Of a stretch of 64,000 nucleotides of DNA, positions 1-62,793 are shown piece after piece (position 1 is the first letter of the stretch; each line of letters begins with the position of its first letter). Origin of the DNA: Alphaproteobacteria bacterium (GTDB taxonomy: Bacteria; Pseudomonadota; Alphaproteobacteria; UBA828); the NCBI GenBank assembly GCA_965237415.1, contig CBDEFM010000001.1:192001-256000 (forward strand), written 5' to 3'. The position numbers were made by a program, and so were the translations under genes. A model generated the notes under the pieces. The model saw only the letters and a program-made list of their open reading frames with translations, was not told the origin of the DNA and did no database searches.

Positions 1-421
1 CCGTGCCGCTCTCCACCGGGTGGCCTTCCGCCCGCCAGCGCGGCAGACCGCCGGCGAGGATCGAAACGCGCTCGTGCCCGAATACGCGGAACATCCACCA
101 GACCCGTGCAGCGCTATAGAGGCCCACCGTGTCGTAGGCCACGACGTGCGAGTCGTTGCCGACGCCGAGCGCCGAGACGTCGCGTGCGAAGTGCTCGGGG
201 GACGGCAGCATGTGGGGCAGCGACGAGTGGGGATCGCAGATGCTGTCGATGTCGAAGAAGGCCGCGCCCGGGATGTGGGCCTCCAGGAACTCGGTGGCCG
301 GGTCGCGCGCCAACGTCGGAAGATGCCACGAGCCGTCCAGTACCCGCACCCCGCTGCCGGCGCCGACTTCTGCGGCGAGCCAGGCCAGGGTCACGACCAG
401 CGGTGTCTCGCCGTCGCTCAC
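1..421 (-). CDS. sseA: 3-mercaptopyruvate sulfurtransferase (rhodanese), N-terminal part; runs off the window edge
   Basis: Not in the ORF track. Manual translation from GTG at 421 gives MSDGETPLVVTLAWL...VLDGSWHLP...HIPGAAFFDIDSICDPHSSLPHMLPS...SAARVWWMFRVFGH, the typical SseA motifs. Start overlaps the alaX stop. Confidence 0.9.
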   Translation of the reverse strand, partial: MSDGETPLVVTLAWLAAEVGAGSGVRVLDGSWHLPTLARDPATEFLEAHIPGAAFFDIDSICDPHSSLPHMLPSPEHFARDVSALGVGNDSHVVAYDTVGLYSAARVWWMFRVFGHERVSILAGGLPRWRAEGHPVESGT

Positions 422-1137
422 GACGGGTCTCCGAAGGCGAGCGTGACGCGCCGGTTGTGCCTGCCCTTGTTCTCGATCTTGCGGACGATGATCGGCCCGA
501 TCTCGCCTGTCCGCGCCACATGGGTGCCGCCGCAGGGCTGCAGGTCGATCCCGTCCACATCGATCACCCTGACCCGGCCGTGGCCTGACGGCGGCTTGAC
601 CCGCATCGTCTTCACCAGCTCCGGCTGCGCCGCGAGCGCCTCGTCGCTGATCCAGCGCGCCGCGACCGGCAAATCTCGCGCGATGAGCGCATTGAGCTCT
701 TCCTGAACGGCCGCCTTCTCCAACTTGGTATCGACATCGAAGTCGAGGCGCCCCTTCTCTGCCGAGAGCTGCCCGCCCGTCACCGGCGCATCGACGACGG
801 CGCTCAGCAGATGGAGGCACGTGTGCATGCGCATGTGGCGATAACGGCGCTCCCAGTCGAGCTCGGCAACGACGCGGCTTCCGGGCGCCGGCGGCGCGGA
901 GCCGGGGTCGATCATATGGAGGATGTCGTCGGGGCCTTCGCCCTTGCGCGTGTCCTGCACTGCGAACACCGTGCCGTCGTCTGCTCGGAGGACCCCGGTA
1001 TCGCCGGGCTGGCCGCCGCCTTCGGGATAAAAGATCGTGCGGTCGAGCCGCACCGACCCGGGCTCTACCGCGCCGATGCGCGCCTCGCAGGTACGGGCGT
1101 AGGGCTCGGCGCGGAAGAGCAGCTCAGTCGGCGGCAT
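418..1137 (-). CDS. alaX: Alanyl-tRNA editing protein (AlaX family)
   Basis: FYPEGGGQPGD, HMRMHTCLHLL (HxxxH) and QPCGGTHV (CxxxH) motifs; ATG at 1137 chosen as start. Confidence 0.9.
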   Translation of the reverse strand: MPPTELLFRAEPYARTCEARIGAVEPGSVRLDRTIFYPEGGGQPGDTGVLRADDGTVFAVQDTRKGEGPDDILHMIDPGSAPPAPGSRVVAELDWERRYRHMRMHTCLHLLSAVVDAPVTGGQLSAEKGRLDFDVDTKLEKAAVQEELNALIARDLPVAARWISDEALAAQPELVKTMRVKPPSGHGRVRVIDVDGIDLQPCGGTHVARTGEIGPIIVRKIENKGRHNRRVTLAFGDPS

Positions 1138-56587: not shown

Positions 56588-57613
56588 GGCTCAATTCGCG
56601 AATCATATGCGCTACCTCGTCACGGCGGCGGCGAGGCAGGCGCGATCATTGGCGCCGGGGGCGAGGCCGACGAGGTGGAACCAGCTCAGATAGTTGTCCA
56701 GATAGCGGGTGGCGACCCCGCGGCGAGGTCGCAGGAAGTCCTTCCTCCGGCTGTGGCGGCTGTTCACCGTCTGCACATGCAGATCGCCCCGAACCCGTTC
56801 CCCAATCGACCGGTTGAGTGCTTCGTGGCTCACCCCGAGCGCGGCGGCGCACGGCGGGTAGCTCGCGCCGCCGTCGGAGACCAGCAGGGCGTCCCTGGCG
56901 AGCACCGGATCGAGGGCGGCCGTGAGGGCCGTCGCGTCAACCCTGGGCAGCACCGCGCTGAACGTCGTCCCGCTCCGGTCCGCTGCCATGAGAACCGGCA
57001 CCTGCTCGCGCGAGAGGCCACGCTTCTTCGCCTTGCCGCCCCGCCGCCGTGCCTTGCGCCCCAGCTTGCGCGCCCCCTTCCGGCTCTCCAGCACATAGGT
57101 CTCGTCCGCTTCCACGATCCCCTTGAGCACCCCCGAACGATGACGGGCCGCCGCCAGAAACCGATGACGCCAGCGGAACGCCGTGCTCACCGCCACATCG
57201 CAGCGCTCTGCCGACGCCTTCACCGTCTCCCCCTCCGCAAGCGAGGCCCCGAACGACAGCCAGCGCTCCTTGTGGTGCAAGCCCGACAGCGGGGTGCCGG
57301 TTAGCGCGTTGAAGGTCCTGCCGCAGCCTTTGCATTGGTAGCGCCGAAGACCACGTGCCTTGCCCCGTGAAACCGCCCCCTCCCGCGCGCAATGCGGACA
57401 GCGCCGGGCCTCGTCCACAGCGAGTTCGATCGCCGCCTTCGACGCCTCGCCCGTACTCCGGCCAGACAGAACCGCCCAGTGCCTCGCGCCGCTGTGCCCG
57501 CGTCAGCCCGCTCGCCGCCGAAAGCCAGCCCTGAAAATCCTGACTATCCATGACCAAACCTCCTGAGATTCGGGCCATTCTACCAACGATGCGTACGATT
57601 TGCGAATTGAGCC
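56588..57613 (-). mobile_element. IS1595-family element with an 8-bp TSD
   Basis: IRs GGCTCAATTCGCGAATCATATGC and GGCTCAATTCGCAAATCGTACGC; TSD TAAAAGTT at 56580-56587 and 57614-57621. Confidence 0.93.
56612..57551 (-). pseudogene. IS1595 transposase with a +1 frameshift near 57477
   Basis: MDSQDFQGWL...REAL, then frame change to AVLSGRSTGEASKAAIELAVDEARRCPHC; Zn ribbon, VEADETY, SDG, HVQTVNS. Confidence 0.85.
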
Positions 57614-57865
57614 TAAAAGTTGGGCATCCGCACGGTCGTGCGACCCATGCGAGAAGCGTTCCGACCCGGCAAGACGCGCCGCCGATCTGGCCAACCAAAG
57701 GAGACAAGACATGCTCGAGACATAGCGTGCATCGCACCTTGACTTCTGTTGCCTCATAAAAGTCCACGGGAGGGACCCGCGCGCGCGGGTCGACGCGCCC
57801 TGTGCGCGGCTGGCGGCGGCCCGCGCGTGGGTGGGGCCTATGGGCCCACGGGGACAAGCGGGGGG

Positions 57866-58300
57866 TTATTCGGACGGGCGCTGGCGTCGCGATCGGCTCT
57901 GCCTGAGCCGGTAGCTGTCTGCGTTCATCTCCAGGATATGGACATGGTGGGTGATGCGGTCGAGCAGCGCGCCGGTGAGGCGCTCGCTGGCGAAGACCGT
58001 TGTCCATTCCTGGAAGGGCAGGTTTGAGGTCACGATTGTGGCGCCGTTTTCGTAGCGCCGGCTGAAGACGTCGAACAGCAGTTCGCTTCCGGTCTGCGAG
58101 AGGGGCACGTAGCCGAGCTCGTCGACGATCAGGAGATTGACCCTGGCGAGCTGGTCCTGGAGGCGGAGGAGCCTCTTCTCGTCGCGCGCCTCGATCATCT
58201 CGTGGACCAGGTGAGAGGCGGTGGTGAAGCGCACGGAGAGGCCCTTCTGGCAGGCGGCAAGCCCGAGGGCGAGCGCGACATGCGTCTTGCCGACGCCTGA
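57866..58300 (-). pseudogene. istB: istB 3' fragment
   Basis: SGVGKTH, LLIVDELGY, TSNLPF, ALLDRITH. Confidence 0.92.
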
Positions 58301-58302
58301 CG

Positions 58303-58773
58303 GAACAGCCACACACTGCCCGATACCAGGGCGGTCCGACGAAGATCCACTACCCCTTCCACCCCCGCACGGGCCAGCGCGTGGAAGTGGTTCGGCGCCA
58401 CCGCTTCAAGGGGACCATGATCTACGTCGTCCGCCAGCCGGATGGCACGCTGGCGCAGATACCGACCTGGATGTGCTTTCCAGACGCGGCGGCGATGACG
58501 GTGACGGATCAGCCGCGGATCGCGCTGGACGCCCTGCGCGACCTCCGTTCGGACATCGACGCTGTTCTACCATCGCCCTCCCGCATGGATTTGGGAGGGC
58601 GACATGGGAAGACAGGGAGAGCTGTTGGAACTACTGGAGCCGGGTCCGGCACTCACGCCGGCGATGCGAGGGGCGGTAATCCCGATACTGGCGGCGCTGC
58701 TGCTCGAAGCGGCAGCGAACCCGACGGAGGACATGGCGGACGGGACGGCCACGGAGAAGGAGGCGGGCGATGA
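58303..58773 (+). CDS. Small accessory protein of the LSR element (Y4bD/Y4pK/DUF5372-like), open right up to the element end
   Basis: Frame reads EQPHTARYQGGPTKIHYPFHPRTGQRVEVVRRH...PDGTLAQIPTWM; first in-frame start in the integrated state is the GTG at 58381, downstream of the HYPFHP motif. Confidence 0.7.
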   Translation, partial: EQPHTARYQGGPTKIHYPFHPRTGQRVEVVRRHRFKGTMIYVVRQPDGTLAQIPTWMCFPDAAAMTVTDQPRIALDALRDLRSDIDAVLPSPSRMDLGGRHGKTGRAVGTTGAGSGTHAGDARGGNPDTGGAAARSGSEPDGGHGGRDGHGEGGGR

Positions 58774-58789
58774 ACAAGATCGCGCCTGA
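58604..58789 (+). CDS. Second small accessory ORF overlapping the recombinase start
   Basis: GGAGGG RBS; amphipathic ILAALLLEAA with an acidic tail, typical of ORFs preceding these recombinases. Confidence 0.6.
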   Translation: MGRQGELLELLEPGPALTPAMRGAVIPILAALLLEAAANPTEDMADGTATEKEAGDEQDRA

Positions 58790-60829
58790 CCATCTGGCGC
58801 GCGAGGCGGTCGTCTACATTCGGCAGTCGACGCCGGACCAGCTGCGGCACAACCACGAGAGCCGCCGTCGTCAGTACGGCCTTGCGGATCGGGCTCGCGG
58901 TCTGGGCTGGGACGAGCCCGTGATTATCGACGAGGATCTCGGCCGCTCTGGAGGCGGAACGTCGCGGCCGGGCTTCGATCGGCTGCTGCTGGCGATCTGC
59001 GAAGGGCGCGTCGGCATCGTGCTGTCGCTGGAGGCTTCGAGGCTCGCTCGAAACGGCCGCGACTGGCACACGCTGCTGGAGTTCTGCGCGCTTGTGGGCT
59101 GCCTGCTGGGCGACGAGGACGGCTTGTATGATCCTCGCCTGCCGAACGACCGTCTATTGCTGGGTATGAAGGGGACGCTGTCGGAGATGGAGCTCTCGAC
59201 GCTGCGCCAGCGCTCGCTCGAGGCGCTGCGCCTGAAGGCGTCCCGTGGCGAGCTATTCCTCAGCGTCGCGGTGGGCTACGTGAAGGTCCGATGCGACCGG
59301 ATCGCCAAGGATCCCGACCGGCGCGTGCGTGAGGCAATCGATCTCGTGTTCCGCAAGTTCGCGGAGTTCCGGAGCATCCGCCAGGTCCACCTCTGGCTGC
59401 GGCAGGAGGAAGTGCTGCTGCCGGCCGTCAGGATCGTTGGCAAGGAGCGCCATATTGTCTGGAAGCCGCCGGTCTACGGCACCGTCCACAAGCTGATGAC
59501 CAACCCCGTCTACGCCGGCGCGTACGCGTTTGGCCGGACGGAGAGCCGCGTGACCGTCGAGAACGGACGCAAGCGCGTCACGCGCGGCTTTCGCCGCGAT
59601 CGCGCGGACTGGGACGTGTTGATCCGCGATCACCACGAAGGCTACGTTTCCTGGGACGAGTACGAGAGGAACCAGCGTCTGATCGCCGACAACGCCAACT
59701 GCGGGGCTTGATGGCAAGGGGCGCCGTGCGCCGCGGCGATGCGCTGCTCGCGGGCCTGCTGCGCTGCGGACACTGCGGCCGGCGTGTGCACGTCCACTAC
59801 AGCGGCACCAAGGGGTACTGCGTCCGTTACGGCTGCCAAGGCGCGCATGTCAACCACGGCACCAGGCCGTGCATCGCCTTCGGCGGCTTGCGCGTGGATA
59901 CTGCGGTCGGCGATGCAGTGCTGCGACTGCTATCTCCGCTCGGCGTCGAAGCGGCGCTGGCCGCCATCGAGACCCGTGAGAGCGACAACGCCGAGATCCG
60001 ACGGCAGGCGGAGCTGGCGCTGACGCAGGCGCGCTACGAGGCCGATCTGGCACAGCGCCAATACGATGCCGTCGATCCAGCTAACCGCCTTGTCGCGGCC
60101 GAGCTGGAGCGACGGTGGAACGACCGGCTGGCGGATGTGCGCCGGCAGGAGGAGCGGCTCGCCGCCACTGCGGCCGCCCGTCCGGAGGCACCGTCATGCG
60201 CGGAGAAACAGCGCTTGATGGCGCTGGGCGATGATCTCTCGACGGCGTGGTCGCGCCCCGATGCCACCGCCGAGACGCGCAAGGCCATCCTGCGCGCGGT
60301 TCTGGAGGAGATCGTCGTCACGCTGGCCGATGGCTGCGTTGACCTTCTTCTCCACTGGCGTGGCGGCGACCACACGCGTCTGAGCGTGCCGCGCAACCGT
60401 AGGGGACAGCATCGCTGGGCGGCGAGCGCCGAGGTGGTCGACCTGGTTCGCGGACTGGCGAGGCAGCTGCCGGACGGCGCGATCGCGGCCACGCTCAACC
60501 GCCTCGGCAAGAAGACCGGGCGAGGCAACTCGTGGACGGAAGCGCGGGTGCGCACCTTCCGCAATAGCCGTGGCGTTGCCGTCTTCCGATCAGGCGAGAT
60601 GGCGGAGCGGGGCGAGCTGACGCTGACCGATGCCGCCGCACGGCTCGGCATCAGCAAGATGACGGTGCTGCGGTTGATTGCGGGCGGCACAATCGACGCC
60701 ACGCAGGTGTGCAAGGGAGGGCCATGGGCCATCCCGGAGGCGCTGATAGACGCCCTGTACGGCACTGACCTGCGCCAATCGCGCCCGCTAACAGCCGATC
60801 CGAACCAGGAACAGCTGGATTTTCAATAA
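58770..60829 (+). pseudogene. Large serine recombinase split by a 1-nt frameshift at about 59705
   Basis: YIRQS catalytic motif, DLGRSG, RPGF, SRLARN, recombinase domain; second frame carries the CGHC Zn ribbon, coiled coil and C-terminal HTH. Confidence 0.88.
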
Positions 60830-60861
60830 CGTAGCGAGGTGTGCATTATGCACTCGGACTC

Positions 60862-61193
60862 GAGGGCCCGAGCAGGATCGCGTTCTCGCGCCGCTCGATC
60901 CACTCGCAGCGCGCCAACTCCAGCACCTGCGCCTTGTTCAGCGCGGGGATGGCCTTGAAGTCGAAGCTCTCGAGCTGTTTGACGACGGGGAACCTGGCCT
61001 GCCTGATGCGCCGCTCGACCAGGCGGCGCTCGCGGTCGATCATCTCCAGCTCCACCAGCCGGGCCAGGAACCGCACATGATCCAGCCCCTCGGCCGTGCA
61101 CTGGCGCGCCAGTTTCTCGTACTCGCGCAGAAAGGTCGGCAGCTTCAATCTCTTCAGGTGATGCTCGAGCAGGATGCGGGGGGCCTCAGCCAT
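60862..61193 (-). pseudogene. istB: istB 5' fragment
   Basis: LKRLKLP, ARFP, FDF, ending at LLGPS. Confidence 0.92.
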
Positions 61194-62682
61194 GGCCGGC
61201 GGCCAGCAGGGTGGCGTAATCGGCGCTACGGGTGGCGGCGACGAAGGGCTGGGGGAGGTGCGGATAGCGTGTCAGGTCGAGACGGGCCGGCCGCTTCTCG
61301 ATGCGCGCCAGCAGCAGGTGCTTGACCGCATCGAAGCCGATCACGCGCCGCTTCACCGCGTCCTGCACCGCGGCCGTCACCTGGCGCTCCGGAAAGTCCT
61401 CCAGCAGGCGCAGCACCTGGATGTATTCGCGCTTGCCGCGCGGCCCGAAGCGGGCTTCGAGGAGGCGGCGCAGCGTGTCGAAGGCCGGATCGAGCTTCCA
61501 CCCCCGCAGCGGCGCCGCCTGGTCCAGGGCGCCCGGCTTCCTCTCCAGCAACGACAGATAGTGCAGCGGGTCGTAGACGACGTCGCCGCGGACATAGGAG
61601 CGCCTATGGCGGGCGACGATCTCGGCGCCGAGCGCGATCTCGACCCGGTCGACATAGCCCTTGACCGTCACCTTCTTGTGGGCGTGCACCGCCGGCGCCG
61701 AGTAGTCCACCAGCCGGTAGCGCACCAGGGCCGTCGACGAGACCTGGCCCGGCACATGCTCGCAGGCCTCGAAGGGGACGGCGGGCAGATCGCGCAGGGC
61801 GTCGAGATCGGCGAGCAACGCCGCCGCCTGGTCGCCTGCCTCCAGCGCGTCGAGCCGCTCCAGGCAGCGCGCCATCAGCCGCTCGTTCAGGACCGACAGG
61901 TCGTGCACCTTCGGGATCGGCACCATGAACCGGCGCCGTGCCGTCTTCACCAGGGCCTCCACCTTCCCCTTGTCGTTGCCTTTGCCGGGCCGGCCGAAGC
62001 GGTCGCGGAACAGGTAGTGCGACTGAAGATGTGAGAACGCCTGCGTCCTGCGGCGCGTGCCGTCCCCCAGGATCCGCGCCACCGCAAGGGTGGTGTTGTC
62101 GTAGAGGATCGAGCGCGGAACCCCGCCGAGGAAGGCGAAGGCGCTGACATGGCCGTCGAGGAAGGCCTCGGTCGTCTCCCTCGGATAGGCCTTGACGAAC
62201 CAGACATTGGAATGGGGCAGGATCAGGCAGAAGAAGGCGACCTTCTCCCGCTGCCCCCGCAGCTCCACCACCGCCTCGCCGAAGTCGACCTGGGCATGGC
62301 CCGGCGGGTGATGCAGTGGAACGAAGGCCTCGCGCGTCGATTGCCGCCGGGAACGCACATAGTCCTTCACGATGGTATAGCCGCCGGTGAACCCGTACTC
62401 GTCCCGCAGCCGCTCGAAGATCCGGTGCGCCGTGTGGCGCTGCTTGCGCGGCACATCCGGATCCGTGTCCGCCTCCAGGATCGCGTCGACGATGCCGGTG
62501 AACCCGTCCAGCTTGGGCCGCCTGACCGGCTTCGTCCGGCGGTAGCCCGGCGGCGCCGAGTAGCTCAGCATCTTCTTCACCGTGCGACGGTCGATGCCGA
62601 ACCGACGGCCCGCCTCGTGATGGCTCAAACCCTCGTCGACAACCGCCAGTCGAACCGCCGCATAGAGCTCCACGCCGTACAT
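61186..62682 (-). CDS. istA: IS21 transposase IstA
   Basis: HTH, AQVDFG, YDNT, KGKVE DDE motifs, KPGAL; ATG at 62682. Confidence 0.93.
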   Translation of the reverse strand: MYGVELYAAVRLAVVDEGLSHHEAGRRFGIDRRTVKKMLSYSAPPGYRRTKPVRRPKLDGFTGIVDAILEADTDPDVPRKQRHTAHRIFERLRDEYGFTGGYTIVKDYVRSRRQSTREAFVPLHHPPGHAQVDFGEAVVELRGQREKVAFFCLILPHSNVWFVKAYPRETTEAFLDGHVSAFAFLGGVPRSILYDNTTLAVARILGDGTRRRTQAFSHLQSHYLFRDRFGRPGKGNDKGKVEALVKTARRRFMVPIPKVHDLSVLNERLMARCLERLDALEAGDQAAALLADLDALRDLPAVPFEACEHVPGQVSSTALVRYRLVDYSAPAVHAHKKVTVKGYVDRVEIALGAEIVARHRRSYVRGDVVYDPLHYLSLLERKPGALDQAAPLRGWKLDPAFDTLRRLLEARFGPRGKREYIQVLRLLEDFPERQVTAAVQDAVKRRVIGFDAVKHLLLARIEKRPARLDLTRYPHLPQPFVAATRSADYATLLAAGHG

Positions 62683-62793
62683 CCCCCGCCCCTCGTCGCA
62701 ACCGACAAAGGACCATGGTTGGCGCATTTTTGCGCCGCCGCGACCGGACCGTCCGGTCGCTCCGCGTGGAGCATTATTCCTCCGCCGTTAACA

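Follow-up and report, generated by a model that had tools for sequence, protein, structure and literature searches.

We identified a gene whose translation start is separated from the rest of its coding sequence in a 64,000-nt stretch of contig CBDEFM010000001.1 (Alphaproteobacteria bacterium, UBA828; assembly GCA_965237415.1), hereafter referred to as the window. The gene belongs to an insertion sequence (IS)-like element at positions 58299-60863, which encodes a DUF5372 protein, a small protein (orf2) and a large serine recombinase (LSR). While the element is integrated, the open reading frame (ORF) for DUF5372 lies start-less at its left end, and a Shine-Dalgarno (SD)-like box with an ATG lies at its right end. 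This split-start gene is real and conserved, as seen from the geometry of the locus, its conservation among relatives, joined forms in natural DNA and the missing start. We consider it probable that the gene is completed only when the ends of the element are joined, and that its product is a recombinase cofactor whose supply depends on the recombination state.

The boundaries of the element can be placed to the base. An IS21 copy on the minus strand carries an istB gene split by a 2563-bp insert, with GA at each end of the element. The two istB parts match Pfam IstB_IS21 at positions 100-236 of 238 (57866-58298; E 1.4e-50) and 2-101 of 238 (60864-61193; E 1.2e-20). Joined through one GA, the flanks read LLGPSGVGKTH on the minus strand, and the insert therefore lies within the Walker A codons of istB. 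Two unbroken istB paralogues of this genome are exactly as long as both flanks and one GA combined, and in contigs from two public runs 58298 is followed directly by 60862, so that 2563 nt are missing and two letters are shared. The GA ends, the length of the empty paralogues and the skipping contigs show a conservative recombination at a 2-bp core without target-site duplication, and the coordinates given for the element in an initial annotation of the window proved exact. We also considered a crossover at the CG flanking the core, but rejected it on the reasoning that it would leave an extra codon and a broken Walker A motif when the flanks are rebuilt.

The initial annotation had described a left-end ORF that is open up to the element boundary and has no start before its conserved motif, and this is what we observed. 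Between a stop in the istB flank (58225-58227) and the TGA at 58771-58773, the DUF5372 frame contains no further stop, and its first ATG, GTG or TTG is a GTG at 58381. Pfam DUF5372 (PF17342) matches at 26.4 bits (gathering cut-off 25; E 7e-06), over profile positions 1-43 of 78 only; in the relatives L084 (27.6 bits) and L078 (24.9 bits, just below the cut-off) the match extends over positions 1-75, and in L031 (18.5 bits) over 2-75. As the match in the window begins at 58345, residue 16 after the boundary, GTG 58381 falls within the domain, 12 codons after its start. Among 57 aligned family members, Y18, F20, H21, P22 and G25 are invariant or near-invariant, and all of them are encoded upstream of this GTG. 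A product initiated at GTG 58381 would therefore be devoid of the most conserved part of the domain, which speaks against the possibility, raised in the initial annotation, that a functional protein is made from this codon in the integrated state.

At the right end, six bases separate the recombinase stop (TAA, 60827-60829) from the outward-pointing GAGGT-7 nt-ATG that had been noted there initially. The ATG is followed after 11 nt by the core GA at 60862-60863, so that its first base lies 14 nt from the core. Sequences of the form GAGG-N5-9-ATG occur in this genome at a frequency of 4.7e-4 per position, and about 0.003 combinations of box and ATG in the right frame would be expected by chance over some 20 positions. 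Joining the ends adds the five right-end codons in frame to the 157 codons that run from the boundary and yields the 162-aa protein that had been predicted. The crossover core falls between codons 5 and 6 of this joined ORF, and thus inside the element's own gene as in the known switches with an attachment (att) site within a gene. Because the recombination site divides the first gene at this point, its start signals come to lie at the right end once the element is integrated.

To see how far this arrangement extends, we scanned one genome per species and obtained at least 590 matching stretches, of which at least 561 encode a relative of the recombinase. Unless stated otherwise, our counts rest on the best 80 of these at least 561 relatives, which share 68-94% recombinase identity and come from several phyla as judged from record titles. 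A DUF5372 ORF lies upstream of the recombinase in 77 of the 80, three being cut or 5'-truncated. At the right end, the motif is recognizable in 71 loci, 66 of which carry the ATG, and the hexamer at -12 to -7 reads GAGGTG in 32, GAGATG in 17, AAGGTG in eight and CAGGTG in seven; both the SD-like box and the start codon are thus kept at the end of the element. Nine bases upstream of the ATG stands a second in-frame start codon (GTG in 49, ATG in 20). In all 64 relatives for which both ends were available, the joined frame continues without a stop into the YxFHP motif (median length of the joined ORF, 165 codons). A random frame across the junction among homologs, which would have spoken against the initial proposal, was thus not observed. 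Six loci differ in length between start and motif by whole codons (three one codon shorter, three two codons longer), and we therefore take this stretch to be read as protein. Moreover, of the 58 loci with both flanks, 52 yield an exact G-x-x-G-x-G-K-[ST] when the flanks are put together, and in 51 of these 52 the element is antisense to the ATPase gene; the rebuilt Walker A motif fixes the geometry of the boundary independently. The features of the locus are compiled in Table 1.

Table 1 Features of the element and its surroundings in the window (strand "." where none applies).
Feature	Position	Strand	Remark
SD-like GAGGT (60836-60840), 7-nt spacer, ATG (60848-60850)	60836..60850	+	points outward from element
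First five codons (MHSDS) of joined ORF; also inner right att arm	60848..60862	+	
Left att arm, holds CACACTGC (58312-58319); encodes joined-ORF codons 6-15	58301..58330	.	
DUF5372 ORF without start codon, 157 codons from boundary	58300..58773	+	conserved domain ~58336-58590
GA core dinucleotide, left junction (attL)	58299..58300	.	identical GA at 60862-60863
GA core dinucleotide, right junction (attR)	60862..60863	.	public-run contigs share 2 letters here
orf2, 61 aa, own GGGAGG ribosome-binding site and ATG	58604..58789	+	
LSR N-terminal piece, Resolvase and Recombinase domains, ends at frameshift	58770..59711	+	
LSR C-terminal piece: zinc ribbon, coiled-coil region, excisionase-type helix-turn-helix	59708..60829	+	-1 frame relative to N-terminal piece
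istB C-terminal part (IS21 helper ATPase), second half of Walker A (..GVGKTH) onward	57866..58298	-	left flank
istB N-terminal part, through first half of Walker A (..ILLGPS)	60864..61193	-	right flank
istA transposase, host IS21 copy	61186..62727	-	Mu-transpos_C_2 and rve domains

Joined ends also occur in natural DNA. A degenerate junction pattern retrieved a single metagenome contig, L091, whose minus strand runs from the 3' end of the recombinase across the junction into DUF5372, i.e., in the predicted geometry. Its residues 1-154 share 96.8% identity with the right end of L071, residues 153-356 match the left end of L062 (83.8%), and a 113-aa ORF spans the junction. The same pattern gave no match in viral contigs and none in 401 sampled genomes of the class. 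Its 47-letter form matches 47 of our own 65 joined sequences and the scans employed a 54-letter form; since it also missed the contig of P0015 (see below), these counts are undercounts. A word-index protein search returned only 11 matches, and a profile search of 1.84 billion protein-cluster representatives returned 2465 DUF5372 relatives, of which we compared the N-termini of 160. P0015 (MKQARAKQRHNAGCPAFEVRIH) shows a junction-type N-terminus, its first five residues being those of the right-end peptide of L082 (5/5), and P0097 agrees with the right end of L084 in seven of eight residues; P0035, P0117, P0119 and P0115 show weaker matches of this type. The contigs of P0015 and P0119 measure 2719 and 2729 nt, about the length of the element plus an assembler overlap, and judging from this size they may represent circles.

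To gain insights into the role of the protein, we modelled DUF5372 alone and together with the recombinase. The structure model (mean pLDDT 81.5) consists of an SH3/Tudor-like barrel (residues 13-55) and a helix (76-89), preceded by a disordered basic N-terminus. A fold search with this model gave no match at E <= 0.001, only generic SH3/Tudor/KOW-like barrels. Two-chain models of DUF5372 with the intact recombinase of L011 scored 0.67, 0.67 and 0.63, compared with 0.00 for the best of three controls, at a contact agreement of at least 72% and a partner pLDDT of at least 70. In the calibration of the modelling tool, this mark was reached by 58 of 80 solved complexes but by only 2 of 110 mismatched pairs; the calibration holds only roughly here as we supplied our own alignments for the complex. 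In the modelled interface, LSR residues 332-337 (zinc ribbon), 386-399 and 472-536 face DUF5372 residues 20-23, 46-54 and 66-90, which comprise the FHP motif and the C-terminal helix. These models support a predicted binding of DUF5372 to the recombinase around the zinc ribbon and the residues flanking the presumed coiled coil. On the strength of this prediction, we read DUF5372 as a recombinase cofactor, the supply of which would be tied to the recombination state.

Our observations suggest the following mechanism. The 2.56-kb element has integrated through a crossover at the 2-bp GA core into that part of istB which encodes the Walker A loop, and integration parts the SD-like box, the ATG and five codons from the rest of the DUF5372 gene. 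Only in the joined state does a normal translation start stand before the DUF5372 ORF. The joined form would be either an excised circle, which is the expected intermediate of LSR transposition, or a head-to-tail junction; most likely as the circle, it would be the only state in which the DUF5372 of this copy is translated. The protein would then bind the recombinase and tune its action after excision. We infer that translation initiates at the right-end ATG, that this is restricted to the joined form and that the product acts as a cofactor; the initial proposal of a regulatory state switch, with DUF5372 as a candidate directionality or target-capture factor, is plausible. A more specific version, which we offer tentatively and regard as rather doubtful, holds that DUF5372 is a directionality cofactor whose gene is assembled by the very reaction it controls. 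Integrated copies, devoid of DUF5372, would leave the recombinase, alone or with orf2, to excise only, and the circle would produce DUF5372 and switch the recombinase to integration into Walker A coding DNA. If so, the topology of the DNA of the element itself would determine direction, independently of the host.

Several observations, given in this and the following paragraphs, weigh against our main reading. In L091, an IS5-like transposase gene (32-781, plus strand) is inserted downstream in the DUF5372 ORF and cuts the junction ORF, which indicates stable DNA and not necessarily a transient circle, and P0117 lies on a contig of 13,570 nt. It is therefore conceivable that the gene is completed on stable joined forms, such as tandems or an unintegrated replicon copy, the integrated copies being silent end states: the junction copy of L091 must have persisted to be struck by the IS5-like element, and the 13.6-kb contig of P0117 speaks for the same. 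We nevertheless hold this to be improbable, since the P0015 and P0119 contigs are about as long as the element, as would be expected of assembled circles, and since the junction pattern was absent from all 401 assembled genomes of the class. In addition, LSR transposons such as Tn4451 move via circles, as the cited part of PMC3158075 describes.

Alternatively, the split might be incidental, with the right-end GAGGTG..ATG being kept as a recombinase binding site and DUF5372 being made in the integrated state from another start, i.e., an internal GTG or TTG, a near-cognate codon before IHYPFHP, or a start in the flank. The ATG indeed lies within an imperfect inverted repeat of the att arms (right GCA-N-T-ATG, left CAT-A-N-TGC). 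As the initial annotation had recognized in describing symmetric, attP-like boxes, GCATTATG (60843-60850) and CACACTGC each lie 11 nt from the core and are complementary at six of eight positions. The family profile gives the same symmetry: over distances 12-19 from the core the right arm and the complemented left arm agree, and the left arm keeps CA-Y-A-N-T-G-C-C, complementary to the right arm, at distances 12-20. Part of the conservation of the ATG may therefore reflect recombinase binding instead of translation. Furthermore, 16 of 68 relatives contain an in-frame GTG or TTG inside the integrated element (four at the boundary codon, 12 within 1-3 codons of the domain), and nine of 68 have an in-frame start only in the flank. 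Five of the 71 right ends are devoid of an ATG (ATA in four, AAG in one), and two ATA copies, L032 and L036, occupy two different IstB genes of one genome. Among the 160 catalogued relatives, 21 are called from a start 1-7 residues before the motif (e.g., P0001 and P0002), 11 of them with M, and about a dozen catalogued proteins start at an ATG that stems from the antisense of the GK[ST] codons. Finally, the first ~10 residues after the boundary are disordered in our model and lie outside the predicted interface, so that the tail itself may not matter.

On balance, we regard an incidental split as unlikely. In the integrated state, 43 of 68 relatives, and likewise the copy in the window, have no ATG, GTG or TTG in frame between the upstream stop and the domain, and an in-frame ATG is found in only two of the 68. 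The SD-like GAGGTG box does not belong to the symmetric stretch of the arms, and nothing mirrors it in the left arm. All 71 right ends keep the A of the ATG, whereas its mirror position in the left arm varies (T in 59 and C in 16 of 78), the exchange of T and C there being a silent change of a His codon. The whole-codon length changes upstream of the motif indicate that the stretch is read, and intact junction ORFs occur in natural DNA. The box without mirror, the invariant A and the otherwise start-less ORF argue for an added translational role of the right-end ATG, as far as sequence comparison can tell. Given the ATA copies, the GTG and TTG codons near the domain and the called starts near the motif, the split start is, by this comparison, the common though not universal state of the family.

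The right end could also act in transcription, as a junction or outward promoter similar to those of IS911, IS30 or Tn4451, with GCATTAT as the -10 box and the ATG not serving as a start. A standard scan of the integrated element (58200-60960) found no sigma-70-like promoter sites, which also counts against our own reading, and no terminator, including after the recombinase. A promoter formed across the junction, with the -35 box from one end and the -10 box from the other, was not found in the joined sequences. Their sole recurrent match was a weak one (8/12) in 18 of 63, the element of the window included. It lies wholly in the right end, with TTTTCA or TTTCCA at -28 and CATTAT as second hexamer, and is absent from the other 45 of 63 relatives, while SD and ATG are nearly universal. 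In addition, a transcript from this -10 box would start downstream of the ATG and leave the ORF still without a start codon, and we judge a purely transcriptional role very improbable. With no terminator after the recombinase and no promoter identified, read-through around a circle may be possible.

A last reservation concerns the window's copy itself, whose recombinase is not intact but encoded in two frames (58770-59711 and 59708-60829), as the initial annotation had implied; in relatives the frame is continuous. Being frameshifted, this copy may be inert. The two pieces together nonetheless contain the catalytic, recombinase and zinc-ribbon parts that define an LSR (PF00239, E 1.6e-22; PF07508, E 3.4e-12; PF13408, E 5.9e-09), and L011 has all three in one ORF of 684 aa; the C-terminal piece also matches PF12728 (E 1.6e-07). 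The frameshift is common to all three full copies in the genome (the third copy was outside the pairwise comparison). A 1883-nt run contig carries one extra base behind 59701 that keeps the recombinase frame open, with one other difference, and an extra base at 59701-59702 is present in contigs of run X2 (18/18 depth) and in part of those of run X1. The break is therefore either real and shared or a repeated assembly error.

We next compared the element with systems in which gene expression is linked to recombination at att sites. The cited part of PMC3158075 describes how the LSR TnpX moves the small element Tn4451 via a circle with a 2-bp core and no target duplication, and our element resembles Tn4451 and Tn4453 in being an LSR element with a 2-bp core and no target duplication. 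The likeness of its LSR to TnpX is known from shared Pfam domains only. Lyras and Rood reportedly found in 2000 that the joint of the Tn4451 circle forms a promoter for tnpX; if so, expression there is also tied to the joined state. In our element, however, the joined ends would supply translation signals (SD, ATG, five codons) and not promoter hexamers, the completed gene encodes a small accessory protein and not the recombinase, and the target is the Walker A coding DNA of IS21 istB and not a loose GA site.

Integrases of the SSV type have the recombination site within their own ORF, and integration splits the gene, as stated in the cited part of PMC7253208; a recombination site inside the element's own ORF is what our element shares with them. 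These are archaeal tyrosine recombinases whose integrase gene itself is cut in mid-ORF. In contrast, the bacterial serine-recombinase element described here splits off only the start region of a putative cofactor gene and leaves the recombinase gene whole. In mycobacteriophage BPs and its relatives, attP lies in a regulatory (repressor) gene, and according to the sections of PMC4557955 cited here the integrated and free forms encode different products, which amounts to a recombination-state switch through an att site within a gene. BPs is a phage with a tyrosine integrase, whereas ours is an IS-like element. In BPs, the repressor gene has its 3' end exchanged and thereby yields a shorter, stable repressor; in our element, it is the 5' end with the initiation signals that is removed. 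Circular intermediates of insertion sequences (IS911, IS2, IS30 and the IS110 family) form junction promoters, by which expression rises only on the abutted ends. These employ -35 and -10 boxes from the two ends, whereas our element has its coding sequence split between them. For ICEKp1, the cited part of PMC13023037 describes a switching of int promoters that depends on the state of the element.

DUF5372 further resembles recombination directionality factors (RDFs) in being modelled on the zinc ribbon and the residues flanking the presumed coiled coil. RDFs such as phiC31 gp3, Bxb1 gp47 and SPbeta SprB are small proteins encoded by their elements, and they bind the integrase close to its coiled-coil base. 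In contrast, we found no relationship of DUF5372 to a known RDF in sequence or, in the fold search at E <= 0.001, in structure, and RDF genes are not known to be divided by their attP. If an RDF were produced by the excised form alone, the usual logic of these factors would be reversed. Our literature search, which had subscription journals and supplements outside its scope, retrieved nothing on DUF5372 or this element family, and no case in which a circle junction supplies a start codon. Splitting of element genes at att sites and expression from joined ends are known, and we regard the split-start gene as a novel form of the att-site-within-gene switches.

Large DNA is inserted into genomes mainly with LSRs, and the chief problem still open in their use is how to control direction. 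In the family described here, a recombinase-binding protein appears to be tied firmly to the recombination state through the division of its start across the att site; the family is broad, with at least 561 relatives in a single genome scan and 2465 protein-cluster representatives. If our reading is true, the arrangement would lend itself to simple, portable constructs that express a factor solely after excision or solely before integration, and would add a new cofactor family. The split start also explains why DUF5372 genes are often left unannotated or given arbitrary starts. The family moreover lands in conserved coding motifs of other mobile elements, namely IS21 IstB, IS66 transposase and tyrosine integrase.

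Annotation of matching plasmid records is in fact sparse. In the plasmid records L092-L095, the recombinase is called in three of four and orf2 in three of four where listed, and no CDS is listed over DUF5372. Among 117 matching plasmid records, most of the 40 listed show no feature under the match, the gene table being incomplete. A megablast search of the element against plasmids matched the istB flank only, in 32 records, none covering 80%.

Several features of the remaining genes are of note for the organization of the element. The C-terminus of the recombinase forms a helix-turn-helix of the excisionase family (TIGR01764 / PF12728) at 60614-60760, corresponding to residues 616-661 of L011, which is not known to be usual for serine integrases. 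An SD-like box and the motif RQxDLFE...LLxEA are found for orf2 in most of the 74 relatives scored; it is annotated as a hypothetical protein in plasmid records and has no Pfam or NCBIfam match, and DUF5372 is likewise without an NCBIfam family. In the window, the tail of the DUF5372 frame overlaps orf2 in a different frame and ends in ATGA at the recombinase start. The same is seen in 67 of 77 loci, where the DUF5372 frame crosses orf2 in the other frame and stops in ATGA or TGATGA at this point. We rejected the ATGA overlap within the TGATGA class as a second, independent configuration, as it is the same frame with one more stop. Across orf2, the DUF5372 frame is free of stops in 56 of 74 loci compared to 23.5 expected from codon shuffles, a comparison that is indicative only since the loci are related. 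Ribosomes that translate DUF5372 may thus also be passed on to the start of the recombinase by translational coupling, although the latter carries an AAGGAGG box of its own. In a few relatives (P0003, P0009 and L057), DUF5372 and orf2 are fused in one frame and may act as a unit there.

The targets of the family are mostly IstB-like ATPases with 30-90% identity to the window's istB, and a few other P-loop proteins (L019, L020). In L084 (3331-3708, 6102-7925), the element splits an IS66-family transposase between the DDE domain and the IS66 C-terminal element, in L093 (2966-3535) it follows a truncated tyrosine-integrase gene, and a copy in S. meliloti adjoins an IS66 transposase. Serine recombinases normally need matching cores. 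The core is identical at attL and attR in 49 of 62 relatives and differs in 13 of 62, which is unexpected (L014, L015, L017, L031, L035, L044, L050, L053, L061, L068, L073, L079 and L087). The mismatch concerns the second base in 11 of the 13 and the first base in L044 and L053. Seven loci (L016, L025, L027, L030, L064, L075 and L076) are contigs of 2557-2631 nt that end at or a few bases from the ends of the element; short-read contigs of element length are the usual sign of a multi-copy repeat.

The host genome harbors three near-identical full copies of the element (G000 C1:249999-253163, C2:3637937-3641101 and C2:3768224-3771388), one truncated copy (88.7% identity) and fragments. Inside the element, the full copies are alike except for two positions, at both of which the same copy deviates. 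Over 300 nt their left flanks are identical, and their right flanks diverge in clusters from 28 or 106 nt past the end, which could reflect a mosaic of IS21 variants, gene conversion or repeated insertion. The cores vary between insertions of the same element in this genome (GA, GT and GG). The joined-end pattern was absent from both contigs of this genome, and no joint running back from the right to the left end was found in contigs of runs X1, X2, X18 and X19; as contigs drop rare variants, the latter is no evidence of absence of a circle. Contigs from RNA libraries (X18, 58236-58764; pieces of X19) cross attL and were not counted as transcription. Rfam gave no match in 57800-61300. Beyond the element, an IS1595-type transposase ORF (PF12762, E 9e-15) occupies 56612-57418 of the window on the minus strand, ~450 nt past the 3' end of the istB ORF (57866).

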